From: an uncultured bacterium
Lineage (GTDB): Bacteria; Patescibacteriota; JACMRA01
Reading direction: 5' to 3'
Assembly (NCBI GenBank): GCA_963704645.1
Contig: OY969926.1
Location: forward strand, 480,001 to 544,000
Length of the DNA stretch: 64,000 bases
In this document: one piece after another, positions 34,348 through 53,332 of the stretch
How positions within the stretch are numbered: position 1 is the first letter of the stretch
Layout of the letters: the number at the start of each line of letters is the position of its first letter
Made by a program: the position numbers and the translations under genes
Notes under the pieces: generated by a model
Seen by the model: only the letters and a program-made list of their open reading frames with translations
The model's database searches: none
What the model was told of the DNA's origin: nothing

Positions 34348-34445
34348 ATTTTGCCTAAAAATATAATTCTTAGGGTTTTATGTAAACCAAAAAATACTAA
34401 GTGTGTTTTATTTTTATGGCTTAGACCCTGAAACAAGTTCAGGGT

Positions 34446-35525
34446 TGTATATGTCATAAATTTCAGTGACAGAATTTAAATCTTCTTTTAGATTATTTCT
34501 GTTAAATTTTTAACAACATATATTCTAACATAATATGCGTTTAAACGATAATACTTTAACCAAGAATTACCTTAGACATATGAAACAATTAGTTCAAGAA
34601 TATGAATTAATTAAAACAAGGAAACATCCTAGATATGTATTTGTAAATGAATTCTACAAAGCAAATAATATAACTAGACAAAACTTCATCAAATATTACA
34701 ATAGGTATAAATTAGTTTCTATGGATAGTAGTTTAATTCCAAAGAAAAGAGGGAGAAAGTTTGGTAGTTTAAAAAGTATTCCTTTCATACAGAATAAGAT
34801 TATTGAACTTAGAAACCAAGGATTTGGTAGATATGAGATACACGATTTCCTTTTACCTAAGTATGGTAAATATACTCCTTCACCTACGACTATTTACAAT
34901 ATACTATTAAAGAAAGGATTGAATAGATTAGATCCAAGAGTAATTCAAACTAACAAAAGAAGAATCATTAAAGATAAAGCAGGAGAATTAGGCCATATGG
35001 ATTGCCACAGACTAGCTAAAGGAATACTGGAGGGTGAAAAGAATGAATACTTTCTACTAAGCTTAACAGATGACTTTACTAGAATAGTTATGACCATACT
35101 AATACCTAATCTGCAAGCTCTAACAGTTATGCTTTATACTCAAAGATTATTAGCAGTATTCAATAGATGTTACAACATAGATTTTCAAAGTATATTAACA
35201 GACAATGGACCCGAATTTGGAAGGAAAGAAACAAAAGAAGAAAACAAACAAAACCATCCATTTGAAAGATTACTGTTAGAATACAACATTAAGCATAAGT
35301 ACACTAGAGCCTACAGGCCACAAACCAATGGTAAAGTAGAAAGATTCTGGAGAAGTTTAGAGGAAGAATTACTTAGAGAGCAAGTATACCCAGATAAAGA
35401 AAGTTTAGAAGAAGAATTATTTGAATATTGTTGCTACTTCAACCATATTAGAAGACATCAAGGTATTGGTAATATTACTCCCTATGAGAAACTTAATTCT
35501 GTCACTGAATAAGTTGACATATACA
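34446..35525 (+). mobile_element. IS481-family element copy 1 (1080 bp)
   Basis: TGT...ACA ends; 31-bp imperfect TIR TGTATATGTCA-N5-TTCAGTGACAGAATT; AGGGT duplication. Confidence 0.95.
34535..35512 (+). CDS. IS481-family DDE transposase
   Basis: GELGHMD, TDNGPEF, PQTNGKVERF, RRHQGIG. Confidence 0.95.
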   Translation: MRLNDNTLTKNYLRHMKQLVQEYELIKTRKHPRYVFVNEFYKANNITRQNFIKYYNRYKLVSMDSSLIPKKRGRKFGSLKSIPFIQNKIIELRNQGFGRYEIHDFLLPKYGKYTPSPTTIYNILLKKGLNRLDPRVIQTNKRRIIKDKAGELGHMDCHRLAKGILEGEKNEYFLLSLTDDFTRIVMTILIPNLQALTVMLYTQRLLAVFNRCYNIDFQSILTDNGPEFGRKETKEENKQNHPFERLLLEYNIKHKYTRAYRPQTNGKVERFWRSLEEELLREQVYPDKESLEEELFEYCCYFNHIRRHQGIGNITPYEKLNSVTE

Positions 35526-35601
35526 AGGGTGACATGGCTCGCTCGCAGATCTCAAACTTGTCTATTTACAAAGTGTAATTGGTGGGCTAAACTAAGCTAG
35601 A

Positions 35602-37575
35602 TTGGCTACAGATTTAAACAGTTTAAAAAGTAAGATAAGGGTTAAACATAGTGAGAAATTAACTTTGGGTGACCAGTTTAAAAAGGCTTTGAAATATAGG
35701 TTTTTTTTGTATGTAAACTTTATTTTAATTACAGCCGTTTTGTTTTTAAGCTTGGGTGTACGTTTGAATCAAACAGTTGTAAAAGCTAAAGATTTAAGCC
35801 CAGGCTGGTTTGAAGTTGCCAGAACATTTCTAGATTTAAACGAAAAAGATAGGCAAAATAGTGTTTTACAAATTAAGCAAGAAGCGCGAGATGCTTTAAA
35901 ACCCATTGGTAATTTTACGCTTACAAATGGTTTAATAGAAGCTCAAATTGATGAATTAGATGGTCTTTTCCAGGAATGGTTAACAACATTAAAGCCTTTG
36001 TTGGTATATAGATTTAGCCCAAACGGTTTAATTTCAAGTAAAAATAGTGAAGATTATTTCACTAACGATTTGGAAAAAATACTAAATAATTTGCCTCCGC
36101 TTTTATTAAAAACTGAACAAAAATGGGATTCGGTTAGTTTAGTGCGCTGGGCTTTAAAAAACTTTGGAACGGCAAGAATTAAATTTGCTTTGCAATTAGT
36201 TGATGATAGTTTTGCTTGGATTAAGAAAATTTATCCTAATCGTGATCAGATTCTACAAATTTTAGGCAATGACACCAGGCAGAGAATTTTAATTTTCAAC
36301 CAAAACATTGGGGAAGCAAGGCCAACCGGTGGTTTTATTGGTTCTTATATTCCAATTGAATTGTTTAAGGGTAGGCTGACCATTGGCGAAAGTCAGAGTA
36401 TTTACAATGTAGACGGCTCTAAGCCCAAACCGCTGCTTACACATCCTGCTAATTGGTATTACGCTTTAGACTATAATGGCTATGGTGAAAGTGGTATTAG
36501 AAACATTAATTATTTTCAGTGTTTTCCTTCAACTGCATCGGCTTTACAGCGTGAATTTGCAACTAGTTCGCAGGGTTTTTCAGCTGATATTATCGTATTT
36601 TTAAACCCGCAATTGCTGCAATCTTTGTGGCCAGACAATTTAACAATTCAAACCCAGACAGTGGGGGAAATAAATAGATTTAACTTTTTGGAGCAGGTGG
36701 AAAAACTTACTAGCCCTTCTCTTTTGGCTAAAGATGATAAAAATCCAAAGGCTGAAATAAGTGTTGTGGCCGAAGCTTTAATTAACAATTTTAGCAAAGT
36801 TTTAGATCAGCAAAGCAGCTCTGAACTGGCCACAATAATGGGAGTGAATTTGCTTGCTAGAAACTTACAAATTTGGTTCAAAAATAGTTTAATTCAAGGT
36901 TATTGGGAAGAAACTGGCTTGGCTTCCACACAAACTTGTGAAGGGAAAAGTTCTATTCCAACAGTATCTTTTTTGTTAGCTAATTTATCTAGTGATAAGC
37001 GTAATTTAATAAGTAAAAATCAGTTTAGTTTTTATTCTGAAAGTGTTCTTGGTGGTCATAATATTCACTTTACATACCAGCAAATTATTCCAGACTCTCC
37101 AGACTTGTTGCGCGGTTTTAATTCCGATACGCCATTAACTTTTGTAGGACTTCAAATTCCTAAAGATGCTACTAAATTAAATGTATCTGGAAATAATGTT
37201 TTGAAGTTGCCAGCCTTAAGGCAAAACTTTATGGCCTTAGCTAGCAGTCAAATTGGTAGTTCGCCAAAGTTGCTTGAAGAAGCTAAAATTGTTGAAGAAA
37301 GTATGTCAGATTTGGAAACTGGTTTTGTATATTTTCAACCAGATGGAAGTCAAGTTATAGGGGCTTATATTAGAGATACGCAAGCTAGCAAAACTAAGTT
37401 TTCGTTCTTTATTCCAAATCGTTCAGGCGCTATTAAATTTTATTCTCAGCCTGGCATGGTTAATACCAGTTTGTCTTTAGGGGAAGGTGTAGAATTTAAA
37501 GATTTTCCAAGCCAGAAGTATTTAACTAAGCAAGATAGTATTGCCATTGGAACCAGTTTAATTTTGACAAATTAA
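35602..37575 (+). CDS. DUF4012-like membrane-anchored protein
   Basis: ILIFNQNIGEARPTGGFIGSY. Confidence 0.75.
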   Translation: MATDLNSLKSKIRVKHSEKLTLGDQFKKALKYRFFLYVNFILITAVLFLSLGVRLNQTVVKAKDLSPGWFEVARTFLDLNEKDRQNSVLQIKQEARDALKPIGNFTLTNGLIEAQIDELDGLFQEWLTTLKPLLVYRFSPNGLISSKNSEDYFTNDLEKILNNLPPLLLKTEQKWDSVSLVRWALKNFGTARIKFALQLVDDSFAWIKKIYPNRDQILQILGNDTRQRILIFNQNIGEARPTGGFIGSYIPIELFKGRLTIGESQSIYNVDGSKPKPLLTHPANWYYALDYNGYGESGIRNINYFQCFPSTASALQREFATSSQGFSADIIVFLNPQLLQSLWPDNLTIQTQTVGEINRFNFLEQVEKLTSPSLLAKDDKNPKAEISVVAEALINNFSKVLDQQSSSELATIMGVNLLARNLQIWFKNSLIQGYWEETGLASTQTCEGKSSIPTVSFLLANLSSDKRNLISKNQFSFYSESVLGGHNIHFTYQQIIPDSPDLLRGFNSDTPLTFVGLQIPKDATKLNVSGNNVLKLPALRQNFMALASSQIGSSPKLLEEAKIVEESMSDLETGFVYFQPDGSQVIGAYIRDTQASKTKFSFFIPNRSGAIKFYSQPGMVNTSLSLGEGVEFKDFPSQKYLTKQDSIAIGTSLILTN

Positions 37576-37598
37576 TTAGCCTGAAACAAGGTAAATAA

Positions 37599-38795
37599 GT
37601 GTTAAATATTGTAGTTTTAAGTTCTAATAAGAAAGGTAAGTGCGGAATTAAAGATTATACCGAGCGTGTTTTTGATGAAGAATATTATGCTGAAAATTCT
37701 GTTGAAATTTTACCAATTGGTTTAATAAATTGTTTAAAAATTCCATTTAATAAAGCAGATATTGTGCATTTGCAGCACGAGTTCTTTTTGTTTGATAAAT
37801 TAATTGGAATAACAGGATTATTATTTGTTTTTTACTTCGGAATTGTTTCTTTTTTTACTAAGAAAAAACTTATTACTACGGTTCATTCTATTCATAACCC
37901 AAACAATTTAGAATTGGCTTTGCCACATTTTGCAAAGTTCAAAATTTTGTTTCCACTATTATCATTTTATTTAAAAGTTTACTATAGGACTATTATTTTG
38001 TTTAGCCAAAAAACTGTTGTTTTAAGTAAATCTTCAGCCGATGTACTGTATTCACTCACCTCAAAGCCTACTCAAAATAAAAACAAAATTGTAGTTTTGC
38101 CCCACGGTGTTTTCCCAAGGCTGCTAGAAAATACCAATACCAACTTGCTACAAGAAAAATTTTCTGTTCCAGTTAATTCACAAATTTGGACATTGTTTGG
38201 ATTCGCTTTTGAAAACAAAGGTTATCATTTAGCCATACAAGCTTTATCTAAAATTTTAGAACAAAATTCGGCCTCAAACATCCACTTAGTAATTGTAAGT
38301 GGGGAAGGACAGGTGATGTCTGCAGATGGAAATTCTGGTGAATCTTATTTAAGTTATTTAAAAAGAATTACTAAAGAAAGTAATTTGGAAGATAGAGTTC
38401 ATTTTACAGGCTTTTTGGGATATGATGAACCAAATCAAAAAGCTTTGTTGGCAGAAATATTCACTAAAACTTTTGCATTTCTATTTCCTTATTTTAACAG
38501 AAGTAACGCTTCGGGGGCTATGGCCAGTATTTTAAGTTATCAAAAACCAGTACTAGTTTCAGATATTCAATATTTTCAGGAGTTTCCATTTTTGCCTACT
38601 TTTAAGGAGGGTAATGTTGAAGATTTAATTGAAAAAATGCTTAGTTTTTCTAGCTCAAATTACGCCGAAGAATTAGTAGAAAAAGTATCCAAATACGTTG
38701 CTGAAAATAATTTGCAACAAGTTTTTGTTCAGCATATAAATTTGTATAAGGAAGTTTTGTCACCAGAGCACTGGAACGGTGTCTTTAGTAATTAA
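37599..38795 (+). CDS. GT4 glycosyltransferase
   Basis: CGIKDY, HLQHEF, FGFAFENKG, SGAMA, KPVLVSD. Confidence 0.85.
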   Translation: MLNIVVLSSNKKGKCGIKDYTERVFDEEYYAENSVEILPIGLINCLKIPFNKADIVHLQHEFFLFDKLIGITGLLFVFYFGIVSFFTKKKLITTVHSIHNPNNLELALPHFAKFKILFPLLSFYLKVYYRTIILFSQKTVVLSKSSADVLYSLTSKPTQNKNKIVVLPHGVFPRLLENTNTNLLQEKFSVPVNSQIWTLFGFAFENKGYHLAIQALSKILEQNSASNIHLVIVSGEGQVMSADGNSGESYLSYLKRITKESNLEDRVHFTGFLGYDEPNQKALLAEIFTKTFAFLFPYFNRSNASGAMASILSYQKPVLVSDIQYFQEFPFLPTFKEGNVEDLIEKMLSFSSSNYAEELVEKVSKYVAENNLQQVFVQHINLYKEVLSPEHWNGVFSN

Positions 38796-38810
38796 TTAAA
38801 TAATTGAAAT

Positions 38811-39968
38811 ATGAATGAACTTAAAATTGCTTGTCATTTACCAAACAGAGAAAGGTGCGGAATTGCAACTTATGCTAAAAATTTATACGCTCAGGCCGAT
38901 AAATTAAACTCCATCATAAATAATGATGAGACTGCTAAGACTGAAATTAAACTCCAACCTTTTGATACAAAGTTGGCAGATTTGTTTAAGCTTCTTTTCA
39001 AAAAAGTTGATGTTATTCATTTTCAACATGAGTTTGGAATTTGGCCTTTGTTTGGCCTTAGTTTTTTAATATATTTATCATTTTTAAGTGCTATAAATCT
39101 CATTCAAAACAGAAAAATTGTTGTTACAATGCATACAGTTTGGGAGATAAATAAATTAGATAAAATTTTTGCTCATTACCCAAAATATTTACAATTTATT
39201 ATTAGCATTTATTTAAAAACAAGTTACTTTTTAATAACCAATTTAAGCCACAAAGTTTTAGTTTTAAATGAAAATTCGGTGGAAGTATTAAACCAATTTT
39301 CATCAAATAAAAAGAAGGTTGAATATTTGCCACATGGTTTATTTTTGCCAGAAAAAAATGAGGTTGGCTTTGAAGTTCTAAGTAAAAATTATAATTTAAA
39401 ATTAGAAGAAAAATTAATTGTAATGTTTGGCTTTGCTTACCCCAATAAAGGTTTTCATTTAGCTATAGAAGCACTTCCTGAAATTTTAAAAAAAGTGCCA
39501 GAGGCAAAAATTATTCTGGCTTGTTCAGCGCCTAGCGATGGAGGACAAAATTATATGGAAACTTTAGAAAATTTAGCAATAAAATTAAACATTCAAGATA
39601 AGGTAATTTTTACAGGTTTTTTGGAAGATAATGACCCCAAACTTCAGGCTATTTTTAAGTACGCAACTTGCTTTGTTTACCCATATTTTAACCGAAGTGG
39701 GGCTTCTGGTTCTGTTGCTACAGTGTTTGGATATGAAAAACCAATTTTAGTTAGCAATATTCAGTTTTTTGAAAACTTTAGTTTTTTGCCTAAATTTAAG
39801 GAAGGCGATGTACAAGACTTGACATTACAGATAGTTCAGCTACTGTTAGAAAATAGAGACAGCAAAGGATACGAAAATTATTTAAATAGTATAAAACAAT
39901 ATTTAGATAAGCACAGTATTCGCCAAAGTTTCCAATTACAAATTAAAACTTTCTTAAATCTTTTTTAA
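38811..39968 (+). CDS. GT4 glycosyltransferase (paralog of the previous gene)
   Basis: CGIATY, HFQHEFG, FGFAYPNKG, YFNRSGASG. Confidence 0.85.
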   Translation: MNELKIACHLPNRERCGIATYAKNLYAQADKLNSIINNDETAKTEIKLQPFDTKLADLFKLLFKKVDVIHFQHEFGIWPLFGLSFLIYLSFLSAINLIQNRKIVVTMHTVWEINKLDKIFAHYPKYLQFIISIYLKTSYFLITNLSHKVLVLNENSVEVLNQFSSNKKKVEYLPHGLFLPEKNEVGFEVLSKNYNLKLEEKLIVMFGFAYPNKGFHLAIEALPEILKKVPEAKIILACSAPSDGGQNYMETLENLAIKLNIQDKVIFTGFLEDNDPKLQAIFKYATCFVYPYFNRSGASGSVATVFGYEKPILVSNIQFFENFSFLPKFKEGDVQDLTLQIVQLLLENRDSKGYENYLNSIKQYLDKHSIRQSFQLQIKTFLNLF

Positions 39969-39991
39969 AACTCCAAATATTACAAAACAAT

Positions 39992-40741
39992 ATGATCCAA
40001 CTTCGTGAAAAAATTGAACTTTCTCCATCTTTAATAGACTATAAGTTTAAAAATCCAACTTTAAATAATTTAACTTCTAGTTTCCCTTTTTATTATTTTA
40101 GAAGGTTTTTGTACTACTCAGGATTACAATCTTCCATTCAAAAAGAGTTAATTTATAACGAAAGAATTGCAGAATATCCTTATGTATTTAAGCAATTAGG
40201 AGCTTTTGGTGATAAAATTAAAACAGTAATGGATATTGGAAGTAACGATTCTATTTTGCCTTTGCAATTGGCTACTGTTGGTTATGAAGTTACAGCTTTG
40301 GATCAAATTAACACCGAAAATATTTATCATCCAAACATGAAATTTATTTGCCAAGATTTGTTTGATAACTCTTTTGAAGATAACACTTTTGATGCGATTG
40401 TTTCTGTTTCTGTTATTGAACACATGGGATTTGGTTTTTACGGAGACAAAGTAATGGAAGATGCAGATAAAAAGGCATTTGAAGAGGTTTACAGAATGTT
40501 AAAGCCAGGTGGAGTTGCTGTTATTACTATTCCATTATTTGAACACGGAAATTACTGGGACGATAAAATTACTAAATTTACAGAAGAAAGAATTGATTTA
40601 ATTTGTAAGCCGTTTAAAGTTTTAGATAAGCAACTTTCTTCTAAGCAAACAAAGCAGCATGGCAGCAAAACTTTCGAGTTCTTTGCTCCTGCTAAAAAAC
40701 CTACAGAATGGAATGTTTGGTTGTTAACTTTGCAAAAGTAA
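39992..40741 (+). CDS. Class I SAM-dependent methyltransferase
   Basis: MDIGS, FDAIVSVSVIEH, RMLKPGG. Confidence 0.88.
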   Translation: MIQLREKIELSPSLIDYKFKNPTLNNLTSSFPFYYFRRFLYYSGLQSSIQKELIYNERIAEYPYVFKQLGAFGDKIKTVMDIGSNDSILPLQLATVGYEVTALDQINTENIYHPNMKFICQDLFDNSFEDNTFDAIVSVSVIEHMGFGFYGDKVMEDADKKAFEEVYRMLKPGGVAVITIPLFEHGNYWDDKITKFTEERIDLICKPFKVLDKQLSSKQTKQHGSKTFEFFAPAKKPTEWNVWLLTLQK

Positions 40742-40819
40742 TCTTTTAGTAGTCACCAAATTATTGTTTTAATTACTTTATTGAGATCACTCCAATCTTC
40801 CAACACCAATGTTAAATTT

Positions 40820-41416
40820 ATGAATAATCAAGAAATTTTAGAGGCAGCTTGGGGCTTCAAGCCTTGCATTAAAAAGCAATGGTTTTATAAAGAAAATGCT
40901 GTAAAAAAAGTTTTAGATTATGGTTGTGGTTTTGGTGTTTACGGGCAAAATTTAGCTAGTCACGGCTTTGATGTTTATTTTGCCGATGTTGATGATAAAT
41001 TTTTAGATGCAATTCCAACTTCCAAGGAAAAAAAGTTTAAAATTGAATTTGATGCTTTGCCTTTTGAAGATAACCAATTTGATACAATTATTTTAGGTGA
41101 TGTAATAGAGCATGTGCAAGATCTAGATAAATTTTGGGCTGAAGTACAACGTGTAACTTCTTCTAAAATTCTTGTTTCTGTTCCCCGCAGAGAAACACCT
41201 TTCTGGTTTAAACCTCTAAATATTACATGGAAAGCCTACGAAGACATTACCCATAAACGTTATTTTGAGGAAAAAGAATTGCAAAGTTTAGCCAATTCAA
41301 ATTGGTCAGTTTCTATTCAGAAATATTATCCAAGAGCTAAACTAAATTGGCTGTTTAATTTTTTGGAAAAAATTGGGTACTATCCTGGGTATTTGGCGGT
41401 TTTTAGTAGGGTTTAG
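40820..41416 (+). CDS. Class I SAM-dependent methyltransferase
   Basis: VLDYGCGFG, LPFEDNQFD, DVIEHV. Confidence 0.88.
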   Translation: MNNQEILEAAWGFKPCIKKQWFYKENAVKKVLDYGCGFGVYGQNLASHGFDVYFADVDDKFLDAIPTSKEKKFKIEFDALPFEDNQFDTIILGDVIEHVQDLDKFWAEVQRVTSSKILVSVPRRETPFWFKPLNITWKAYEDITHKRYFEEKELQSLANSNWSVSIQKYYPRAKLNWLFNFLEKIGYYPGYLAVFSRV

Positions 41417-41484
41417 TTGATAGTTCGAAATAATTTGTTGATGGCAATAAGTTAATTTTATTTAATCAGACTCACTTAAATTTT

Positions 41485-42114: not shown

Positions 42115-44676
42115 CTAATTATCTCTACTCCTAAACCAAATTAGCTTATCTGTGCCTACTGTTGTTCCATAAAGTTTGCCACCAAAAATGAAACTGTTTG
42201 GCTTAGCCAAGGTTGTAATTCCACTGTTTTCTAGCCAGCTACTCCAAGTTGTTCCGTTGGTTGAACTTCTTGTATAAAGCTTTGTATCTGTTCCACGGGT
42301 AGTTTGGAAAAGCTTACTGTTATAAACAATAACGTCGGGTGCATTTACAATATTAATTCCATTACCTTCCTGCCAAACACTCCAAACAACACCATCGGTA
42401 GAACTTCTGGTATAAAGTCTTCCGTCTGTACCAATTGTTACCTGGTAGATTTTAGATGAAAAAACTGTTGTGGTTGGTTTGGCTGAAATTGTTATGGCAT
42501 TTCCTTCCTGCCAAATACTCCAAACAACACCATCGGTAGAACTTCTTGTATAAAGTTTGTTATCTGAACCTCTGGCTGTCTGGTATAATTTTGAACTAAA
42601 AACTGCTAGGGAAGGTGTATTTTTTAATGTAATTCCAGCTCCTTCCTGCCAAACACTCCAAGTTGTACCATTTGAAGAGCTTCTGGTGTACATTCTGTTG
42701 TCCGTTCCAAATCCTGTTTGATATAATTTTGTATTAAAAACTATCATTTCTGGAGCATCTTTCAAAGTTATTCCAGCTCCTTCCTGCCAAACACTCCAAA
42801 CAATACCATCCGTAGAACTTCTAGTATAAAGTTTAGTATCCGATCCATAGGCAACTTGGTATAGTTTACCACTAAACTCAACCATTTTAGGAGTATCTTT
42901 CAAAGTTATTCCATTACCTTCCTGCCAAATTCCCCAGTTAAAAATATCTGTTGTTGAACGGGTGTATAGTTTGGTGTCATTTCCCATTATGCTTTGATAT
43001 AGTTTGTTATCTACACTAAAATTAATTTGTTCAGTTGGTTTTTCGGTAGTGGCGTTATTGCTTATTTGGTTCCAGTTTCGCCACATATTTGTTAATATCT
43101 GATCAGTTTTAGGAATGCCCCAGCCAGTGTTTACGTCGTAACCAGCACTTCCTAGATCGGTAGAATTTTCTTGAAGAATTTGCATTACATTACTAAAACT
43201 TAAACCAGGATCTAAACTTTTTAATAAGCCAATTACCGATACAAGTTGAGGAGCTGAGAAAGAAGTTCCAAACCATGTAGAGTCTGCTCCTAAAGCTTTG
43301 TTATTACATGGGTCAAAGTAATCTGGGTTTTGTGCAGCGCCGGGTGTGGGATTAAAACTTACAGCGTAAACTTTTCCACATTGTCCGTAAGCTCCTTCAG
43401 GTGAAGATGACCCTGTTCCACCACCTACAGGCATAACAAAATCTAAATAATTTCCAAAGCTTGAATAGCTAGACCTGGTAGTTGTGTTGGCAGCTGCACT
43501 AAAATTTGATGCTCCAACAGCAATTACACTATTTAAAGCAGCTGGATATATAAGTGGGTTTAATGTGTTTGGCAAGCTTGGGTCGCCAAAACAAACTCTT
43601 GTTGATACATCTCCACAATTTCCAGATGCAGCTACAGGTACAACACCCTTAGAAATAGCCCTGTTTAAAGAAGATCCTATAAGTCCGTAAACATCTTCCG
43701 AGCTTCCTAAAGAAAGGTTTATGGCTGCCACACCTTGATCTGTTGCATAATCTATTGCCTTAGAAATATAGTAAGTATTTAGGCTTTGGCCGTGTAATGC
43801 AATTGGCAATAAAGTTAAATTATAGCCTAAAGCTACACCCCCAGAAGTGTTATTTCCTGCAATAATTTGTTGTGCCACAATGCTTCCGTGCCCAACTTCA
43901 TCAAATTGGCTTCCAATACGCTTACAAAAAACTATGAAGTTGTCATTACTGTCTTGTAATGTAGTATCAAAATCACCAATATTATCGCATGTATTATCAT
44001 TTCTAGTGTAATATCTTACGCTGTTGGCAGTATCAATATTAGTATTAGCAAACTCTGGAACCTCCGTTGTGTTCGTGTTTACTCCACTGTCTATAACTGC
44101 TATTTTTGTTGAAGAAATTCCGCCGCACTGTTTGTTAACACCTGTGCTGTCACAACCAGATAAACCTAATCTAGCTTGCATAGCATCCCAAGCCGCAGGT
44201 GCGTTAACTGTACTAGGTCCAGCTTGCAAATACCATTGGTCTACAGAATTAAACTTAGGGTTTGCGGTTGGGTTGTATAGTAGTTTATACTTAAAATTAG
44301 GCTGAACAATTTCAACCGTAGGGTCTAATAAAGCAGTTTTTAAAGCAGTTTTTAAATTATCAATATTGTTAAAAGAAACTATAGAAGTTTGGGAGTTTTC
44401 AGACCTATAGCTGCTTATATTTTGCAATTGAACTTTGTTTAAATTAAGTTTTTGAATACTGTTTTGATTACTAAAACCTTCTTTATTCTTAATAATTAAA
44501 CCCAAACCAGAAAGTTTTTCTGGGTTCTGAGTCATTTTATTCGCTAAAATATTTACAGTGTCACTGCTATTGGCTAAAGTGGCTGAAACTTGGTTGGATT
44601 GGGCACTAACACTGCTTGTAAACAGTAGTGAGACTGCTAGTGATAGAGTAAAAAACAATTTAATGTTGGAATTCAT
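42115..44676 (-). CDS. Secreted S8 subtilase with a C-terminal Trp-repeat propeller
   Basis: IAVIDSG, GHG, AASGN, GTSFSAP; about 7 repeats of 46 aa (138-nt period). Confidence 0.9.
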   Translation of the reverse strand: MNSNIKLFFTLSLAVSLLFTSSVSAQSNQVSATLANSSDTVNILANKMTQNPEKLSGLGLIIKNKEGFSNQNSIQKLNLNKVQLQNISSYRSENSQTSIVSFNNIDNLKTALKTALLDPTVEIVQPNFKYKLLYNPTANPKFNSVDQWYLQAGPSTVNAPAAWDAMQARLGLSGCDSTGVNKQCGGISSTKIAVIDSGVNTNTTEVPEFANTNIDTANSVRYYTRNDNTCDNIGDFDTTLQDSNDNFIVFCKRIGSQFDEVGHGSIVAQQIIAGNNTSGGVALGYNLTLLPIALHGQSLNTYYISKAIDYATDQGVAAINLSLGSSEDVYGLIGSSLNRAISKGVVPVAASGNCGDVSTRVCFGDPSLPNTLNPLIYPAALNSVIAVGASNFSAAANTTTRSSYSSFGNYLDFVMPVGGGTGSSSPEGAYGQCGKVYAVSFNPTPGAAQNPDYFDPCNNKALGADSTWFGTSFSAPQLVSVIGLLKSLDPGLSFSNVMQILQENSTDLGSAGYDVNTGWGIPKTDQILTNMWRNWNQISNNATTEKPTEQINFSVDNKLYQSIMGNDTKLYTRSTTDIFNWGIWQEGNGITLKDTPKMVEFSGKLYQVAYGSDTKLYTRSSTDGIVWSVWQEGAGITLKDAPEMIVFNTKLYQTGFGTDNRMYTRSSSNGTTWSVWQEGAGITLKNTPSLAVFSSKLYQTARGSDNKLYTRSSTDGVVWSIWQEGNAITISAKPTTTVFSSKIYQVTIGTDGRLYTRSSTDGVVWSVWQEGNGINIVNAPDVIVYNSKLFQTTRGTDTKLYTRSSTNGTTWSSWLENSGITTLAKPNSFIFGGKLYGTTVGTDKLIWFRSRDN

Positions 44677-46018: not shown

Positions 46019-46078
46019 TCATAAGGTAGCTACATTTCATACATATTCTGTAAGCTTATAGAAAAACTGGTTGTTTTA

Positions 46079-46164: not shown

Positions 46165-46286
46165 TTAGAACCAGCTAATCCATAAGATCATATAATGCTA
46201 AAAATTTTAATTGTTTGTCAAGGGTAAGGTAAGTGCTTTAAATTTTCCAAAATACAATTTGTTAGTTATAATGAAGTAAAAATAAG

Positions 46287-46991
46287 ATGTCTCTGCAAAT
46301 TTTACAAGTTAAACCTCCAACAGCCGAAGCGCTAAGAATTGCTGCAGAAAAAAAGTCGCAAACCTCGCAAAACGAAAATACCCAAGCAGAGCGTGTTAAG
46401 GAGATCAAGGAAGTTCTAAGTTCATATATCAGACTTTCTGAATATTTAGATGGAGTGTTTGATTCAAAAATGCCAACCACTAATGAAGACAAATATTCAT
46501 TTCTAAAAAACATTTTATCCTCAAGTATGTTTTTTGATTCAAAATTTAAAAAATATCAGCTTAATCACAAAGGACTTATTTTAGATGCTTTTGAAAACAA
46601 TAGTATCTTTTCTAAAGAGGAAATTAAGGAAGTTTTTGTTCTACTTGATGAAATGATTATATCTCAAAAGGAGCTCGGCTATACAGCCGAATTAAAAAGA
46701 AAGTTGCTAGACATGCCTAATCCTACACTAAGTTTTACGCAGCATATACTTTTAGGAATTTTATTTGTTGGATCTATAGACGCAGGAACTAGAAATGAAC
46801 ACCAATTCAATGATAGAACAGCATTAATTGAATCGAACGGTAGAAATTTTAGATTTGGAAGCCAACATATCACTGGACACAACCAGCCTGGTGAAAACGG
46901 TGTAAAGCAACCACACACACATCTAGAATTTTATGTGGATAGAGGTAATGAGAAGAAAGAATCTTTTTCCTTGCACGTTTTAATAAAATAG
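46287..46991 (+). CDS. Hypothetical protein with a His-rich toxin-like C-terminus
   Basis: HITGH...PHTHLE...H. Confidence 0.55.
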   Translation: MSLQILQVKPPTAEALRIAAEKKSQTSQNENTQAERVKEIKEVLSSYIRLSEYLDGVFDSKMPTTNEDKYSFLKNILSSSMFFDSKFKKYQLNHKGLILDAFENNSIFSKEEIKEVFVLLDEMIISQKELGYTAELKRKLLDMPNPTLSFTQHILLGILFVGSIDAGTRNEHQFNDRTALIESNGRNFRFGSQHITGHNQPGENGVKQPHTHLEFYVDRGNEKKESFSLHVLIK

Positions 46992-47027
46992 GTATTGGTA
47001 TTAAAGGAACTAAAATAAAGTGTTAAT

Positions 47028-47279
47028 ATGACAGAACAACAGAATAATTTGATGAGGTTAATTACAGTCAACTTAGATCTTGATATTAAGGTAATTAAGC
47101 TCGATTCAAATATTAGTAAGATATTTGTTAAGTCGGGACTAGAAGAGCAAGTTTTGGTTGTTTATTATAAAAATGCTGATATTAAGGAAATGTTTTGCAG
47201 CAATATTTTATCAGTCTGTAATGATATAATTGATGTCTTAAATTTAAGTGCATCAGATTTAAAAGTTGAACTTGAATAA
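47028..47279 (+). CDS. Small hypothetical protein (possible immunity partner)
   Basis: ORF directly downstream of 46287. Confidence 0.5.
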   Translation: MTEQQNNLMRLITVNLDLDIKVIKLDSNISKIFVKSGLEEQVLVVYYKNADIKEMFCSNILSVCNDIIDVLNLSASDLKVELE

Positions 47280-47302
47280 ACATTTTCGCAAAAACTAAAA
47301 AT

Positions 47303-47829
47303 GCCCATTTCCAGGTTAGGATTGGGCATTATTTTTTTTGGTCAGTTTATTGTAAAAGAACAATTTTAAACCTTACTTTTTCAATATATTCTGTTGTGGT
47401 AAACTGTAGAATATAAGTTTCATCTTGTGAAATTACACAAAGCGGATAATCCACTATAATAGTAAACTCAATATCATCCCAGGCACTTATATTTGTTAGC
47501 TCTAAATAATATACAAAGGTGTTTGAAATGTTATCTTTTCTAAAATAAATTTTTACTCCAAAGTGTGTTATAATTTCGTCTTCCAGTTCAATTTCGTAAA
47601 CTTGGCTTACACAACTTGCACTGCTTAATTGATCCAACTTTAACTCATAATTTATTAAACCACTTAAAACAACAAAACTGTAAATAAAACATTCAGCAAC
47701 GTTTAGCAAACCTAAGTCGCCCATTTTGTAAACCTGTAACAACTAATTTTGAAATAAAATGTTTTAAATTATTTGGTCAAAATATTTTTGAAATTAAAAA
47801 AGCCCAGTTCCAGGTTAGGATTGGGCATT
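47303..47829. repeat. Duplicated 28-bp terminator-like hairpin (47303-47330, 47802-47829)
   Basis: GCCCA(T/G)TTCCAGGTTAGGATTGGGCATT flanked by A and T tracts. Confidence 0.8.
47347..47742 (-). CDS. Hypothetical protein
   Basis: ORF followed by the hairpin. Confidence 0.5.
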   Translation of the reverse strand: MLQVYKMGDLGLLNVAECFIYSFVVLSGLINYELKLDQLSSASCVSQVYEIELEDEIITHFGVKIYFRKDNISNTFVYYLELTNISAWDDIEFTIIVDYPLCVISQDETYILQFTTTEYIEKVRFKIVLLQ

Positions 47830-47846
47830 TATTTATTTATTTATTT

Positions 47847-48140
47847 TTAAATATTTTCCACTGATAATAATGCTATTGCTATATATTCTTTGGAGTATCC
47901 ATTGAATTTCTCTTGCACAATAGTATAACCTAATATTTTAAATGTGATATTGTAAGTTCCAAAAATTTTACCAAATCTATACCCTATAAGAGCATCGCAA
48001 AAGAAAACAGTTTGGTTTTTTGGAAGATTAAGCACATGTTCTGTAAATAAGGAAGGCTCGAAGCTGCCGTAATAGCTATGAGTTTCCGATGTGTATGCCA
48101 GCAAGGCCTTGGCACTATATACTTTATCTGTATCAAACAT
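47847..48140 (-). CDS. Hypothetical protein
   Basis: ORF followed by the same hairpin. Confidence 0.55.
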   Translation of the reverse strand: MFDTDKVYSAKALLAYTSETHSYYGSFEPSLFTEHVLNLPKNQTVFFCDALIGYRFGKIFGTYNITFKILGYTIVQEKFNGYSKEYIAIALLSVENI

Positions 48141-48270
48141 TAATTTATTCTACTGATGAAGACTATTTACTATTAGCACACTTTTAAACTTATTTCAAGT
48201 ACAGTTACCAAGTCATCCAGCAGCCTTGACATTTCTTCCCTTCACATCAAGCATTATTAAACAATATACT

Positions 48271-48909
48271 ATGTCTAACCCAAATTTAAACCACCCAGTT
48301 ATTAAAGGTATTCGCTACCAAAGAACTTTTTGTATGATTAAACCAGATGGTGTAGCCAGAGGTTTAGTTGGAGAAATTATTAGAAGAATTGAAAATGCTG
48401 GATTGAAAGTTGTAGCCATGAAAATGCAAACACCTTCTGAAGAATTGGTAAAGAAGCATGTTCCTTTTGAAAACGCAGCTTGGGTTTCAAGATTAGGTGA
48501 CAAAAGTTTTAGCGGTTTTGAACCATTAAACCTAAACCCAGTAGAATTTTTGGGAACAGATGATAAGGCAGTAATTGGTAAAAATGTAGCCGATAACTTG
48601 GTTAAGTTCCTTTGTTCCGGCCCTGTAGTAGCTATGGTTGTTGAAGGTGTTCAAGCTATAGATATGATTAGAAAGTTAGCAGGACACACACTTCCTTTCA
48701 AAGCCGAAATGGGAACAATTAGAGGAGACTTTTCAGTAGATTCTCCTTCCATTGCCAACGTAGAAGGTAGAGCAATTCATAACTTATTCCACGCCAGTGA
48801 AACATTAGAAGAAGCAACAAACGAAATTGGCCTATGGTTCCCAGAAGCATCTGACCAACAAAGCTATTCCAGAACTGACGAAGACACAATGTACAGCAAG
48901 AATTATTAA
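48271..48909 (+). CDS. ndk: Nucleoside diphosphate kinase
   Basis: RTFCMIKPDGV, SGPVVAMV, GTIRGDF, NLFHAS. Confidence 0.96.
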   Translation: MSNPNLNHPVIKGIRYQRTFCMIKPDGVARGLVGEIIRRIENAGLKVVAMKMQTPSEELVKKHVPFENAAWVSRLGDKSFSGFEPLNLNPVEFLGTDDKAVIGKNVADNLVKFLCSGPVVAMVVEGVQAIDMIRKLAGHTLPFKAEMGTIRGDFSVDSPSIANVEGRAIHNLFHASETLEEATNEIGLWFPEASDQQSYSRTDEDTMYSKNY

Positions 48910-49100
48910 GAATGTAGGGGAAGAATTTATCCTCCCAGCTTAATAAAACATAGAAGGGGGGGTTATCCCTCCTTTTTTGTTGCATAATTTATTCCTCAAA
49001 TTAAATTGTTTGTATTATTTATAACATGTGATGGCGACACAGTGGTGGTCGCTACGGATTACCAATTGACATTATCTTACTTAAATAATAATCTTACTAT

Positions 49101-49358
49101 ATGTCATATACTACTACTGTTTCCAGTAAGGGGCAAGTTGTTATTCCTGAAGAAATAAGGAAGATATTGTCTATTAAACCCGGTTTAAAATTTAATTTAA
49201 CTATTCAAGATGGTAAAATTGTTATGGAGATAGATGATTATGAATTAAAAATGAAAAATTTTAGAGATAAAATAAAGAAACACATGGAAGATAATAATAT
49301 TGGCCCTGTGTCTAATGCGGATATAAAAAAAGCTAGAGAAGATACATGGTCAACGTAA
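49101..49358 (+). CDS. AbrB/MazE-family antitoxin
   Basis: VSSKGQVVIPEEIRK. Confidence 0.9.
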   Translation: MSYTTTVSSKGQVVIPEEIRKILSIKPGLKFNLTIQDGKIVMEIDDYELKMKNFRDKIKKHMEDNNIGPVSNADIKKAREDTWST

Positions 49359-49765
49359 TTGAAGGCTTACCGTTTTGTAGCATAGATACAAATGTATTGT
49401 TAAGATTTATTATTGGAGATGTTCCGAAGCATTTTGAACTAGTTAACAAAATATTAGAAAACCCCAATTTAAGAAAAATTTATATAAATGATCTTGCTAT
49501 TGTAGAAATGGTTTGGGTGATGGAGAAAGTTTATAAAATTGATCGTTACACTATTGTTACTGGTGTGGAGAATATACTCTCATATCCAAAATTTATAGTA
49601 AATAGAATTCTTTTTAAGGATATTGCTCCACTGTACTTATGTAACTCAAAGTTATCGTTTGCCGATTGTTACTTGGCTATAAGTGCTGAAAACCATACTA
49701 CAAGTTTACTTACTTTTGATAAAGATTTAGCTAAAAATGTTGAATCTGCTGTGCTTGTTGGGTAG
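49346..49765 (+). CDS. PIN-domain (VapC) toxin
   Basis: IDTNVLLR, SFADC, LTFDK. Confidence 0.9.
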   Translation: MVNVIEGLPFCSIDTNVLLRFIIGDVPKHFELVNKILENPNLRKIYINDLAIVEMVWVMEKVYKIDRYTIVTGVENILSYPKFIVNRILFKDIAPLYLCNSKLSFADCYLAISAENHTTSLLTFDKDLAKNVESAVLVG

Positions 49766-49826
49766 GGGGAAGGAAGTGTTAAAACCCTTGACAAAAGCCT
49801 ATTTTTGGGGAATAAAGGGTGTATAG

Positions 49827-50168
49827 TTGCGTGTTAAATTATTGTTTTTAGGAGTTATGATTATGATATTTGCGTATCTAACGTTGATTTTTACGATTTT
49901 TGTATTAATGGAGTCGCTATTATATAGCCATTGGGTTAAGATTACGACTGGTACAAATCGAATTTTAAAATTTAATTTGCAGTCTATATTTTATGAAGCT
50001 ACTTTTATTTTTAAAAGATATTCAGAACTAAACTTTGGTTTTATAAGACTTTTTCAAGTTCGCAAACATTACCATTATTATTGTAATCGCCCAAGGCCAA
50101 TTAATACGTCTGCTGATTGTCTATTGTACATGCCTCAGATTAACTTTGATTTGGCAGAAAGGTGTTGA
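49827..50168 (+). CDS. Possible hypothetical protein
   Basis: ORF only; start uncertain. Confidence 0.35.
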   Translation: MRVKLLFLGVMIMIFAYLTLIFTIFVLMESLLYSHWVKITTGTNRILKFNLQSIFYEATFIFKRYSELNFGFIRLFQVRKHYHYYCNRPRPINTSADCLLYMPQINFDLAERC

Positions 50169-50335
50169 TAAAAACTACATGATTTCAAAATGCCCCCAAG
50201 GTTGTCCAAGGGTGGTATTTTTTGTCTTAAAATTGTTTTTCGAATCAAGGCATTTGTTTTATTTACAAAGTGCAATGGCGAGATGGGCTCGCCGCTACTG
50301 TTGCCAAAATGCATCTCGCTAATTACAACTAAATT

Positions 50336-51349
50336 ATGAACTCGGAACTTCTTCCTAAGGCTGTTAAAAATATTCAAGATATCCTAAATTTATCTATAGA
50401 GTTTGATTCAACAAAAAACCAAGCTTTAGTAATTTATGACAATCAAGATGAATTAACTAAATTACTAACAAGTGCCTATAGGCAGGTTTTACCAGAGGCA
50501 AAGTTTGTGAATTTTGATGATGTTTCAAAAGAAGAAATTATTGCAGAATTTGATAATCTTTCGCCTAAAGATTTGGTTGTTTTGGTTCAATCAGCCAGTT
50601 TTAGGCTTGATGATTTTAGAATTAGAATATATTTATTCCAACAGAAATTAAAAACTATAGAGCATGTTCATCTTTATCGTAATAATAAAGACGTATGGGA
50701 TGTTTACATCAACTCTCTTGCTTATGATCAAAATTATTACAGAAGCCATGGCCTAGGTTTGCAAAAAAAATTATCAAAGAGCTCAGTTTTAAAAATAAAG
50801 TCTGGCGAAACTGAACTGGTTGTTAGCGGAAATTTAGAAATGCCGAAACTAAACATTGGCGATTATTCTGAAATGGATAATGTGGGTGGAACTTTTCCTA
50901 TTGGTGAAGTTTTTACAGAAGCTGTAGATTTAGAAAATATGAATGGCAGTTTTATGGTTTACGCTTTTGCAAATCAGAAGTTTGAAATTATTACACCAGA
51001 AAAATTTAGAGTAGATATTACTAAAGGTTTAGTAACTGGCTGGTCTGATAATGCTCCGAAAGAATTTCTATCTGTTCTTGAGGCTATAAAAGAATTAGAA
51101 AGACCTGTAATTAGAGAAATTGGTTTTGGTTTGAACAGGGCAATTTCTAAAACCAGAATTATTGGAGATATAACCGCTTTTGAAAGAATTGTTGGTGTCC
51201 ATTTATCTTTGGGTGAAAAGCATACAGTATACAAAAAACAAGGAATACAAGCCCATAAAGCTAGATTTCATGTAGATTTCTTTTTACAGGTAGAAAAAGT
51301 TGAGGTTGACGATGAAATAATTTTTGATGGAGAAAAGTATTTTGTTTAG
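50336..51349 (+). CDS. M29-like aminopeptidase
   Basis: FPIGEVF, EIGFGLN, VHLSLG, HVDF. Confidence 0.75.
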   Translation: MNSELLPKAVKNIQDILNLSIEFDSTKNQALVIYDNQDELTKLLTSAYRQVLPEAKFVNFDDVSKEEIIAEFDNLSPKDLVVLVQSASFRLDDFRIRIYLFQQKLKTIEHVHLYRNNKDVWDVYINSLAYDQNYYRSHGLGLQKKLSKSSVLKIKSGETELVVSGNLEMPKLNIGDYSEMDNVGGTFPIGEVFTEAVDLENMNGSFMVYAFANQKFEIITPEKFRVDITKGLVTGWSDNAPKEFLSVLEAIKELERPVIREIGFGLNRAISKTRIIGDITAFERIVGVHLSLGEKHTVYKKQGIQAHKARFHVDFFLQVEKVEVDDEIIFDGEKYFV

Positions 51350-51556
51350 AAAATTCCAGCTAATCGTAGCTCATGATAGTTTTGTAAAAGAGTATGCTTA
51401 TTGTGCAATTGTCAGTAAACATTCACTCCTAAAATTAATCTAGTAAGAAGTCTAAGAGGCTAGTTTATAGAAAAGCTTCTAACACTACGGATAAAGTACA
51501 TTTTACTGTTTGGGCTATATCGGCTTAAATTAGTAAAAGCTTTAATAACAAATCTA

Positions 51557-52063
51557 TTAGCTAAACAAATTAACAACTTTGGCGTTTTCTATTCCACCAA
51601 TTCCTGTGTCAGAGGTTGGCATTACTAATAATTTACGGTTCTGTGGTTCTCCAACGCTGGTAGTTTGCAAACCTTTAATTTCTGCTAAAATACCGTGAAC
51701 TAACTTTCTTTCGTAGCCACTTAACCCTGTTAAAATAATTGTTGTTCCTTGCTTTAATACTATTTCTTCAGCTAAAACAGGTACGCGTTCGCCAATTAGT
51801 TTTTCTCTAGATTTTTTGGCACCGGCAACATCAAGCAAGAAATGTTCTTTTTCTTCTGGAAAAGTGTGGTGAACAATTACTCTTGCAATATGTTGTAAGC
51901 TGAAGATGAAGTTTGGATCGGTTGGAATTGGGTTTGTTTTGGAATTAATAGTAATTCTATACTGCTGACTTTCTTTTTCAACTAAATATTCTGGGTCAAT
52001 ACCCATAGGTTGCAATAGACTGCCAATAACTTCCAATAAAAAACTTTGGTAGTCTGGATTCAT
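51557..52063 (-). CDS. Jag/KhpB-like KH-R3H protein without the Jag_N domain
   Basis: SLQHI, ERKLVH, TTSVGEPQNR. Confidence 0.8.
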   Translation of the reverse strand: MNPDYQSFLLEVIGSLLQPMGIDPEYLVEKESQQYRITINSKTNPIPTDPNFIFSLQHIARVIVHHTFPEEKEHFLLDVAGAKKSREKLIGERVPVLAEEIVLKQGTTIILTGLSGYERKLVHGILAEIKGLQTTSVGEPQNRKLLVMPTSDTGIGGIENAKVVNLFS

Positions 52064-52227
52064 ACTGAAGTATAGGAATAGTTACTATGCTATTTGTCAA
52101 GGAAATATAGATAAATAGAGTTATTAAAGTTAAAAACATCTTCACGGCATGTTCCACGAAAAATGTAACAAAAAATTCTTCGTTTTACCGTTATTCAATG
52201 ACCTATACCCTGAAACAAGTTCAGGGT

Positions 52228-53307
52228 TGTATATGTCAACTTATTCAGTGACAGAATTAAGTTTCTCATAGGGAGTAATATTACCAATACCTTGATGTCT
52301 TCTAATATGGTTGAAGTAGCAACAATATTCAAATAATTCTTCTTCTAAACTTTCTTTATCTGGGTATACTTGCTCTCTAAGTAATTCTTCCTCTAAACTT
52401 CTCCAGAATCTTTCTACTTTACCATTGGTTTGTGGCCTGTAGGCTCTAGTGTACTTATGCTTAATGTTGTATTCTAACAGTAATCTTTCAAATGGATGGT
52501 TTTGTTTGTTTTCTTCTTTTGTTTCTTTCCTTCCAAATTCGGGTCCATTGTCTGTTAATATACTTTGAAAATCTATGTTGTAACATCTATTGAATACTGC
52601 TAATAATCTTTGAGTATAAAGCATAACTGTTAGAGCTTGCAGATTAGGTATTAGTATGGTCATAACTATTCTAGTAAAGTCATCTGTTAAGCTTAGTAGA
52701 AAGTATTCATTCTTTTCACCCTCCAGTATTCCTTTAGCTAGTCTGTGGCAATCCATATGGCCTAATTCTCCTGCTTTATCTTTAATGATTCTTCTTTTGT
52801 TAGTTTGAATTACTCTTGGATCTAATCTATTCAATCCTTTCTTTAATAGTATATTGTAAATAGTCGTAGGTGAAGGAGTATATTTACCATACTTAGGTAA
52901 AAGGAAATCGTGTATCTCATATCTACCAAATCCTTGGTTTCTAAGTTCAATAATCTTATTCTGTATGAAAGGAATACTTTTTAAACTACCAAACTTTCTC
53001 CCTCTTTTCTTTGGAATTAAACTACTATCCATAGAAACTAATTTATACCTATTGTAATATTTGATGAAGTTTTGTCTAGTTATATTATTTGCTTTGTAGA
53101 ATTCATTTACAAATACATATCTAGGATGTTTCCTTGTTTTAATTAATTCATATTCTTGAACTAATTGTTTCATATGTCTAAGGTAATTCTTGGTTAAAGT
53201 ATTATCATTTAAACGCATATTATGTTAGAATATATGTTGTTAAAAATTTAACAGAAATAATCTAAAAGAAGATTTAAATTCTGTCACTGAAATTTATGAC
53301 ATATACA
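52228..53307 (-). mobile_element. IS481-family element copy 2 (1080 bp)
   Basis: Near-identical to copy 1 (one synonymous AAC/AAT change noticed); AGGGT duplication. Confidence 0.95.
52241..53218 (-). CDS. IS481-family DDE transposase
   Basis: Same protein as 34535..35512. Confidence 0.95.
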   Translation of the reverse strand: MRLNDNTLTKNYLRHMKQLVQEYELIKTRKHPRYVFVNEFYKANNITRQNFIKYYNRYKLVSMDSSLIPKKRGRKFGSLKSIPFIQNKIIELRNQGFGRYEIHDFLLPKYGKYTPSPTTIYNILLKKGLNRLDPRVIQTNKRRIIKDKAGELGHMDCHRLAKGILEGEKNEYFLLSLTDDFTRIVMTILIPNLQALTVMLYTQRLLAVFNRCYNIDFQSILTDNGPEFGRKETKEENKQNHPFERLLLEYNIKHKYTRAYRPQTNGKVERFWRSLEEELLREQVYPDKESLEEELFEYCCYFNHIRRHQGIGNITPYEKLNSVTE

Positions 53308-53332
53308 AGGGTGACAGCTTGCTACAACATCA

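Follow-up and report, generated by a model that had tools for sequence, protein, structure and literature searches.

The window, by which we mean the whole 64,000-nucleotide stretch analysed here (positions 480,001 to 544,000 of contig OY969926.1, assembly GCA_963704645.1, from an uncultured bacterium of the patescibacterial lineage JACMRA01), contains two copies of an insertion sequence (IS), each placed at the foot of the same palindromic repeat. The palindrome-bearing pattern ACCCTGAAACAAGTTCAGGGT has exactly two matches in the window, at 34425-34445 and 52207-52227, both on the plus strand and against an expectation of 0 from 100 shuffles. Directly after each match lies a 1080-bp IS, copy A at 34446-35525 on the plus strand and copy B at 52228-53307 on the minus strand, and the two are mutually inverted, with arms of 1082 nt in a self-comparison of the window. 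They are identical at 1079 of 1080 positions, the sole difference being a synonymous C/T in codon 5. Copy A sits between divergent open reading frames (ORFs) and copy B between two minus-strand ORFs.

At copy A, the left part of the repeat (34421-34445, plus strand) consists of TTAG followed by the palindrome ACCCTGAA-ACAAG-TTCAGGGT, with an 8-bp stem and a 5-nt loop, and its last 5 nt (34441-34445) are the left copy of the sequence AGGGT. The left terminal inverted repeat of the IS (IRL, 34446-34476, TGTATATGTCATAAATTTCAGTGACAGAATT) abuts the palindrome, which is the minority orientation in this genome (see below); the right one (IRR) occupies 35495-35525, and the transposase gene runs from 34535 to 35512 on the plus strand. 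A second AGGGT (35526-35530) and GACA (35531-35534), the invariant part of the target, complete the site on the plus strand. The left part of the repeat at copy B (52203-52227, plus strand) consists of CTAT and the palindrome (52207-52227), ending in AGGGT at 52223-52227, and is abutted by IRR, the majority orientation. Here the transposase gene lies at 52241-53218 on the minus strand, and AGGGT (53308-53312) and GACA (53313-53316) follow on the plus strand, so that the right flank of both copies reads AGGGTGACA (35526-35534 and 53308-53316).

The presence of AGGGT on both sides of each IS indicates a 5-bp target duplication, and excising the IS together with one AGGGT restores ACCCTGAAACAAGTTCAGGGTGACA. 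The flanks of A and B match for only ~30 nt to the left and 9 nt to the right and diverge farther out, which marks the two copies as separate insertions. An earlier note, drawn from the letters of this DNA alone, had described the same flanks, an AGGGT duplication, inverted ISs and independent insertions, and the identical inner flanks and diverging outer sequence confirm that description.

The IS ends in TGT...ACA and has an imperfect 31-bp terminal inverted repeat, TGTATATG...CATATACA, with an internal variable block, its layout being TGTATATGTCA-(7 variable nt)-CAGTGACAGAATT. A single ORF encodes a transposase of 325 aa with a DDE/rve core that matches Pfam rve, rve_2 and rve_3, and in which D156, D223 and E269 are invariant across a 26-sequence transposase alignment. 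The best NCBIfam model is IS481 (NF033577, transpos_IS481), of which the transposase covers positions 17-283 of 284 at 156.4 bits, below the curated cut-off of 224, followed by IS3 (60.5 bits) and ISNCY_2 (45.3 bits, against a cut-off of 250). Length, TGT-started inverted repeats and the 5-bp duplication all agree with the IS481 family, for which duplications of 2-15 bp, the majority of 6 bp, are reported in a review-like analysis of IS481 and its relatives in eukaryotes, whose excerpted part leaves palindromes unmentioned (PMC10045372). The best family match thus supports a divergent IS481-type IS, the family to which the earlier note had assigned it.

A palindromic repeat family and its occupied sites

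The host genome is a single contig of 1,272,640 bp with 33.4% GC and a marker completeness of 87%, which, with relatives of 0.7-1.6 Mb, would suit a bacterium of the candidate-phyla-radiation type, and it contains eight full IS copies with 99.4-100% DNA identity and 100% protein identity. Seven of the eight lie at ...TTCAGGGT|GACA with a 5-bp AGGGT duplication and are flanked by TGTCACCCT|IS|ACCCTGAAnnnnnTTCAGGGT, in IS orientation or as its reverse: six read ...TGTCACCCT|IS|ACCCTGAAnnnnnTTCAGGGTCTAAG... in IS orientation, and window copy A, opposite to these six, shows the mirror arrangement. What had been proposed from two copies, insertion at one nucleotide of a palindrome-bearing repeat in either orientation, therefore holds across the genome, where the extracted flanks share one target in seven cases instead of being unrelated. 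The remaining full copy, at genome position 431237, occupies a degenerate site, TGTCATCCT|IS|ATGCCTAGGG, at which no hairpin is recognisable and a clean duplication is lacking; its flank contains GAC (ATGACAA).

Six short remnants consisting of a solo inverted repeat were listed by BLAST; all but one, which is at unrelated sequence, share the junction of the full copies, and of these five, four have the majority orientation and one the minority. When full copies and solo-end remnants are counted together, with the degenerate site at 431237 included, orientations stand at 11 to 2 over 13 events; orientation in this genome is biased, not free. An origin of copy A's opposite orientation through recombination between inverted copies or inverted repeats was rejected, because the IRL and IRR tips stay with their own interior and outer flank. 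Among public reads, one run (X1) includes the IS together with the sequence flanking another genomic copy (1132980); it leaves copy A's flanks uncovered, and no contig extends across the IS.

The reconstructed 25-mer occurs uninterrupted and exact at six other genome sites and with one mismatch at four more. For a family-wide search, the eight ISs and one duplication copy each were excised in silico, and an nhmmer profile built from 23 perfect-core copies was applied at E <= 0.1, yielding a repeat family of 52 members, of which 7 are occupied and 45 empty. Members share a conserved unit of ~32 nt, yTTAGACCCTGAAAYAARTTCAGGGTGACAGnnTC, outside which the flanks are unrelated. ORFs of 120 aa or more take up 83% of the genome, yet all but one of the 23 perfect-core repeats fall outside them. 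This extragenic position marks the repeat as a genuine repetitive extragenic palindrome (REP) and upholds the earlier suggestion of safe-harbour targeting. As single-stranded DNA, the repeat folds into a hairpin with the 8-bp stem and 5-nt loop at -7.7 kcal/mol (z = -4.1). A search with PF01797 for a Y1/RAYT transposase gene returned 0 matches in the single-contig genome and did match the control genomes; no Rfam family covers the hairpin, the window yielding only five tRNAs and a 5S rRNA.

The intact repeat is also found in three related genomes, with 58 copies in G003, 3 in G009 and 2 in G017, and was not found in the 37 other relatives searched; among the relatives, a transposase match at E <= 1e-20 was found only in G003 and G001. 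A palindrome that is never seen empty could belong to the element itself, as the earlier note cautioned. This possibility was rejected, given 45 empty repeats among 52 and the presence of the repeat in G009 and G017, where the IS was not found. The genome thus displays the features by which REP-targeting ISs are recognised, in that most copies occupy the same position of the repeat, removal of the IS restores the repeat, and unoccupied targets exist.

Within this family, occupancy follows the sequence at the 3' foot of the palindrome. The exact 3' motif TTCAGGGTGACA is present in 20 of the 52 members, 7 of which are occupied, against 0 of 32 members with variants of that motif (GATA, GACT, TTACA, GAAA, AAGGT... 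and others; Fisher p = 5.8e-4). Among the 20 repeats with TTCAGGGTGACA, perfect-stem sites are occupied in 4 of 11 cases and imperfect ones, with 1-4 stem mismatches, in 3 of 9 (p = 1), and one occupied site has mismatches at 4 of its 8 stem positions. Dependence on the exact motif and independence of the stem together indicate that the insertion point is predicted by the 3' arm plus GACA, not by hairpin-forming ability, and the hairpin-less copy at 431237 points the same way as the occupancy test. The hairpin-directed insertion that the earlier note had favoured is not supported by these counts.

Targeting of single strands or of one replication strand was also considered and was rejected, as there is no clear strand bias. 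By GC skew, replication starts near 240 kb and ends near 890 kb; the top strand of the target lies on the leading strand in 10 of 13 insertion events versus 14 of 22 perfect-core repeats, with no clear difference and no formal test. Additionally, the hexamer TGACAG is common to the inner inverted repeat (CAGTGACAGAATT) and the target, here and in many relatives; in Bradyrhizobium-type relatives the inverted repeat has GCTGATTGGAT in its place. That the domain binding the inverted repeat might also read the target is kept only as an idea.

Target classes among related transposases

Homologues of the transposase number in the thousands in metagenomes. Guided by an alignment of 26 homologues, we retrieved 80 loci each from species-representative genomes and from metagenome contigs; at each locus the ORF was located by tblastn, and TGT...ACA ends were chosen to maximise the inverted-repeat match and the 5-bp duplication. 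The automatic procedure mis-set some boundaries (for example, at L110, L117, L118, L124 and L014), which are kept uncorrected in the 'other' and 'skipped' rows. In a quick IQ-TREE phylogeny with SH-aLRT support, midpoint-rooted and without an outgroup (no IS3 or IS1202), two clades split from classical IS481 with a support of 100.

Clade I, which includes the window protein, comprises 62 rows (support 99) from Bacteroidota, Balneolota, Chloroflexota, Nitrospirota, Bdellovibrionota, Pseudomonadota and a Bacillota-labelled metagenome-assembled genome (MAG), and 49 of the rows show GAC at a distance of exactly 5 nt from one end of the IS. Clade II (17 rows, support 99) inserts at the centre of GGGGACNGTCCCC (GGGGAC-N-GTCCCC) and duplicates ACNGT, so that this part of the family has two distinct palindrome specificities. 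Its loci L129-L143 and L046-L048 have 30-37% identity, inverted repeats beginning TGTTAATGCTCA... and the perfect palindrome AGGGGAC-N-GTCCCCT. The classical IS481 clade, including Bordetella holmesii, has 19 rows (support 100) and a CTAG target in 17 of them; this recovery of the known NCTAGN target serves as a positive control for the procedure. Target class tracks transposase clade on the tree.

The identity range of clade I (37-51%) contains 72 loci, of which 16 were dropped for a poor inverted repeat or a short flank. GAC stands exactly 5 nt from at least one IS end in 49 of the 56 usable loci, where ~2 are estimated by chance (1/64 per side), and NNNAT|GAC(R) is conserved across this multi-phylum clade. 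The 43 sites whose duplication matches at 4 or more of 5 positions give the logo G-S-A-A-T|GAC-R, GAC itself having been used for orienting. Orientations among the relatives are balanced, with 23 A versus 18 B and 2 more matching both patterns (counted as B by reading), and both orientations occur within one genome (L037 and L070 versus L038). The closest relative, from the same bacterial family (L002, 67% identity), has the flank AGGAT|GACAT; compared with the clade, the window element keeps T|GAC(A), with its duplicated positions shifted from GSAAT to AGGGT.

The same target motif recurs across phyla with differing stems (ACCCTGAA, ATTCCCGC, ATCCCCGA, ATTGC...), which favours recognition by the transposase over lineage-specific host factors. 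A perfect stem of at least 5 bp ends exactly at the duplication in 27 of 42 relatives, compared with 2 of 42 in a downstream mirrored control and a shuffle mean of 1.15. Counts of the pattern ATTCCYGN-(loop)-NCRGGAATGAC in the genomes of five other hosts are 196, 5, 631, 110 and 18 (reversed control, 0), the copies often forming alternating pairs like those of REPs and bacterial interspersed mosaic elements. Such high counts imply that empty targets far outnumber ISs in these hosts too.

The targets further resemble repeats of another system. The NTS of Neisseria is CGTCATTCCCGCGMAVGCGGGAATCYRG, and related 'Ssn-related motifs' (SRMs) occur in many bacteria; the Ssn proteins are single-strand-specific GIY-YIG nucleases whose cleavage of single strands is controlled by the three nucleotides GTC, and SsnA is reported to bind single-stranded DNA only (excerpted text of PMC11893778). 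The frame given there, Y-GTC, palindrome and C-YRG, is seen in the window repeat when read on the other strand, TGTC-ACCCTGAA-CTTGT-TTCAGGGT-C-TAAG. Among the relatives' targets, 40 of 42 have a Y directly before GTC and 25 of 28 continue with C after the palindrome, and the IS insertion point is the exact boundary between GTC and the palindrome. The target at L070 differs, by reading, from the published 28-nt NTS (available text of PMC11893778) at one position. The published degenerate SRM pattern, as transcribed from the text of the paper, matches 3 of the relatives' 42 targets (shuffle mean 0.01) and does not match the window repeat, so that we claim a shared frame, not membership.

As for the nuclease, a PF01541 search found no small GIY-YIG gene in the window genome (G000), the only match being the N-terminal half of UvrC. 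Four of the five other host genomes have small GIY-YIG frames of 104-185 aa (Ssn identity putative), and one of these, in G041, lies between two target repeats; G044, with its 110 target repeats, shows only a UvrC-sized PF01541 match. It is conceivable, and we raise it tentatively, that an IS481-type clade extending over at least ten phyla specialised on Ssn-related (NTS-like) repeats, inserting exactly at the GTC/palindrome junction as a parasite of another repeat system and splitting the recognition element of the nuclease at each landing. It might do so by a single-protein transposase with 9-12-bp duplex specificity, the duplicated positions drifting (GGAAT, GCAAT, AGGGT) and T|GAC staying fixed.

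Several loci showed arrangements of their own. Four (L013, L018, L051 and L097) have GTCATTSC to the left and GSAATGAC to the right of the IS, with no direct duplication and the target motif as an extra inverted repeat, a layout that would follow recombination between two copies at both feet of one palindrome. L027, a 1610-bp contig from a Bacilli-labelled MAG with a clade-I IS (45% identity), carries a window-type arm, TAGACCCTGAATCAAGTTCAGGGT, at one end of the IS and, at the opposite end, an NTS-type hairpin, ATTCTCGCGCGCAAGCGCGGGAATCC, without duplication; two copies may have recombined to give these chimeric flanks, and mis-binning of the contig is possible. In a member of the Bdellovibrionales (G041:C5:133060-133364), eight tandem ATTCCCGCTTTCGCGGGAATGAC palindromes at 37-nt spacing are followed by a ninth, variant copy in an array-like layout.

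Within the host genome and outside the window, uvrC is apparently in two pieces ~28 kb apart (G000:C1:1075325-1076389 and 1104461-1104979, both on the minus strand; loci L171 and L184). A 354-aa ORF with the GIY-YIG N-terminal half of UvrC ends ~42 bp from the IS copy at 1074203-1075282, whose duplication is intact, and the UvrC RNase H-like domain lies in a separate open frame of 342 aa. Beside another IS copy outside the window (145333-146412; IS-excised 145320-146133), an ORF of 192 aa with a weak RNase_H_2/PolB-exonuclease-like match (E = 1.2e-5) stands between two same-orientation repeats, a repeat-gene-repeat layout that resembles the one described for ssnA in the available text of PMC11893778. 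The window itself contains two other kinds of repeat. Five tandem 138-bp units (46 codons; 66-75% identity to the reference copy) at 42215-42936 are probably within a protein-coding region, and two 57-nt direct repeats at 47292-47348 and 47791-47847 (82% identity), each a GCCCA...TGGGC hairpin followed by a T-run, look like terminators and bear no relation to the IS target.

Target recognition and its alternatives

We consider it likely that the window carries an active, divergent IS481-family IS whose DDE transposase picks its target by a short duplex sequence located where the stem of a repeated extragenic palindrome ends. For this genome that sequence would be TTCAGGGT|GACA, read as duplex over ~9-12 bp, with GAC just outside the staggered cuts; a 5-bp stagger would leave AGGGT duplicated, and the transpososome would be symmetric enough for integration either way round, with a bias in this genome. 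The recognised sequence is found almost only in ~50 intergenic repeats, so nearly every insertion misses genes, which would explain how eight intact copies persist in a 1.27-Mb genome. Judging from the sequence patterns, the transposase itself, rather than a repeat-bound host protein, probably reads the motif, and duplex rather than single-stranded DNA would be its substrate; by analogy with related families, transposition would proceed by copy-out-paste-in.

Several points weigh against this reading. The family assignment carries a score below the curated cut-off. The occupied sites share more than GACA, namely AAnTTCAGGGTGACA, which leaves the minimal determinant undefined, and the five sites with AGGGTGACA outside the repeat family are all unoccupied but too few to separate sequence alone from repeat context. 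Seven occupied sites are small numbers, the stems may have mutated after insertion, and all evidence for targeting comes from fixed insertions already filtered by selection. Among the relatives, 7 of 56 are without GAC, several have chimeric flanks, and the stem that ends at the duplication in 27 of 42 makes a contribution of dyad symmetry or structure possible. Moreover, most of the target-rich hosts examined have small GIY-YIG genes, a type reported to bind repeats like these, so a host protein could take part.

Recognition of DNA structure, in which the transposase or transpososome would respond to an extruded hairpin, a cruciform or a single-strand hairpin at the replication fork, seems to us unlikely. 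It would account for an insertion point exactly at the 3' foot of a stem that folds at -7.7 kcal/mol (z = -4.1) and for the excess of perfect stems among the relatives (27 of 42 against 2 of 42 in the control), yet occupancy in this genome is indifferent to stem integrity (4 of 11 versus 3 of 9, one occupied site having mismatches at 4 of 8 stem positions), one full copy resides at a site without a recognisable hairpin, and 15 of the 42 relatives lack a perfect stem. Nor is there a clear strand bias relative to replication (10 of 13 versus 14 of 22, no formal test), and DDE transposases of the IS3/IS481 type act on duplex targets.

We also regard as improbable that the transpososome is brought in by a host factor bound to the repeat (an Ssn-type GIY-YIG nuclease, for example, or a different REP-binding protein), with GTC/GAC being the site of that protein. 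The window genome has no small GIY-YIG gene by PF01541 beyond the UvrC N-terminus and G044 shows a UvrC-sized match only, even though four of five other hosts do have such frames, in G041 between target repeats. The Y-GTC-palindrome-C-YRG frame shared with NTS and Ssn-related motifs (40 of 42; 25 of 28; frame from the available text of PMC11893778) would fit a common binding protein, but SsnA is described in the same text as a single-strand-only binder, and an IS clade that spans phyla would need its host partner to be conserved among them. A possible parallel is the ISAba32 subgroup of IS1202, for which something beyond sequence alone is proposed to act at XerCD sites (available text of bioRxiv 10.1101/2022.12.17.520857).

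That there is no targeting at all is essentially excluded. The palindrome and GACA would then be part of a longer mobile unit, or the flanks would derive from duplication or recombination, or random insertions would have survived only in harmless repeats. The gene density of the genome (83%) does imply strong purifying selection, and L013, L018, L051 and L097, with GTCATTCC|IS|GGAATGAC on both sides, look as if they had an extended inverted repeat. Selection, however, cannot yield single-nucleotide precision with a matching 5-bp duplication at seven of eight copies; 45 of 52 repeats are empty and intact, the repeat exists in relatives where the IS was not found (3 copies in G009, 2 in G017), the flanks diverge right outside the repeat, and other hosts carry 110-631 target repeats per genome versus a handful of ISs.

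Relation to known systems

REP-targeting DDE elements of the IS3 family are among the closest known systems. IS1397 inserts in the loop of a palindromic unit, whereas the window element enters next to the stem, at its 3' foot, where a conserved GAC borders the duplication on the outside. The IS3 REP-users also have two frameshifted ORFs, in contrast to the one ORF and the best match to IS481 found here. What IS1397/ISKpn1 and ISPsy8 have in common with the window element is a DDE (rve) transposase, TGT ends, insertion in repetitive extragenic palindromes and restoration of the repeat when the IS and the duplication are removed, the transposase being thought responsible for the specificity (excerpted text of PMC1525189). 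The same source, by Tobes and Pareja, describes REP-targeting for members of IS3, IS110, IS4, IS256 and IS5, which bears out, and extends, the earlier note's mention of IS3 and IS110; IS481 is unmentioned in the part available.

The closest formal analogue, as far as the available text of bioRxiv 10.1101/2022.12.17.520857 goes, is the ISAba32 subgroup of IS1202. Its members have a single-ORF transposase with a helix-turn-helix and a DDE domain, distantly related to IS481, together with TGT ends and a 5-6-bp duplication; the IS always stands off a recognised imperfect palindrome by exactly as many base pairs as it duplicates, a behaviour limited to a single transposase subgroup. They differ in having an XerC/XerD target, at which they are always oriented, whereas the window element uses a high-copy REP/NTS-like repeat in both orientations. 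By the model scores given above, the window transposase is not of the IS1202/ISNCY type, and it targets a repeat of 52 copies instead of a dif-like site, though xrs sites were not formally searched for.

Classical IS481 and IS1002 of Bordetella share one DDE ORF, a length of ~1.04 kb, TGT...ACA ends and, by best hidden Markov model, the family; they differ by their 24-28% identity, a separate, fully supported clade, a 6-bp NCTAGN target and the lack of an association with palindromic repeats. The IS110-type users of REP and dRS3 repeats (IS621, ISPpu9, ISPa11 and PivNM of a Neisseria filamentous phage) are alike in their site-specific insertion into palindromes, and many clade-I targets show the GTC-ATTCCC...GGGAAT-C frame of the dRS3/NTS repeats of Neisseria (excerpted texts of PMC1525189 and PMC11893778). 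These elements differ by a DEDD recombinase, a bridge/seek RNA and, in the material available, no such terminal inverted repeats and no 5-bp staggered duplication; their chemistry and mode of recognition are unrelated to those of the window element.

In the literature searched, with ISfinder and TnPedia entries and supplementary tables (SRM lists, IS1202 insertion tables) outside its scope, palindrome or REP targeting by an IS481-family element was not found described. REP-targeting ISs as such are already known; targeting by an IS481-type element and the clade-wide target rule appear new, in that no description was found.

Site-specific DDE ISs are rare, and each shows how a simple transposase can be aimed. 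Here, a single-protein transposase of 325 aa has a precise target that is conserved across phyla yet evolvable, and the naturally occurring series of target variants already gives an indication of the bases that are important. Annotators of this clade can recognise the true boundary of an IS by a GAC located 5 nt from a TGT...ACA end. The finding also unexpectedly links an IS clade with the widespread NTS/Ssn-type repeats, whose biology has only recently begun to be described, and it would explain the continued activity, without damage to genes, of an IS in a genome as small and gene-dense as this one, probably of the candidate-phyla-radiation type.

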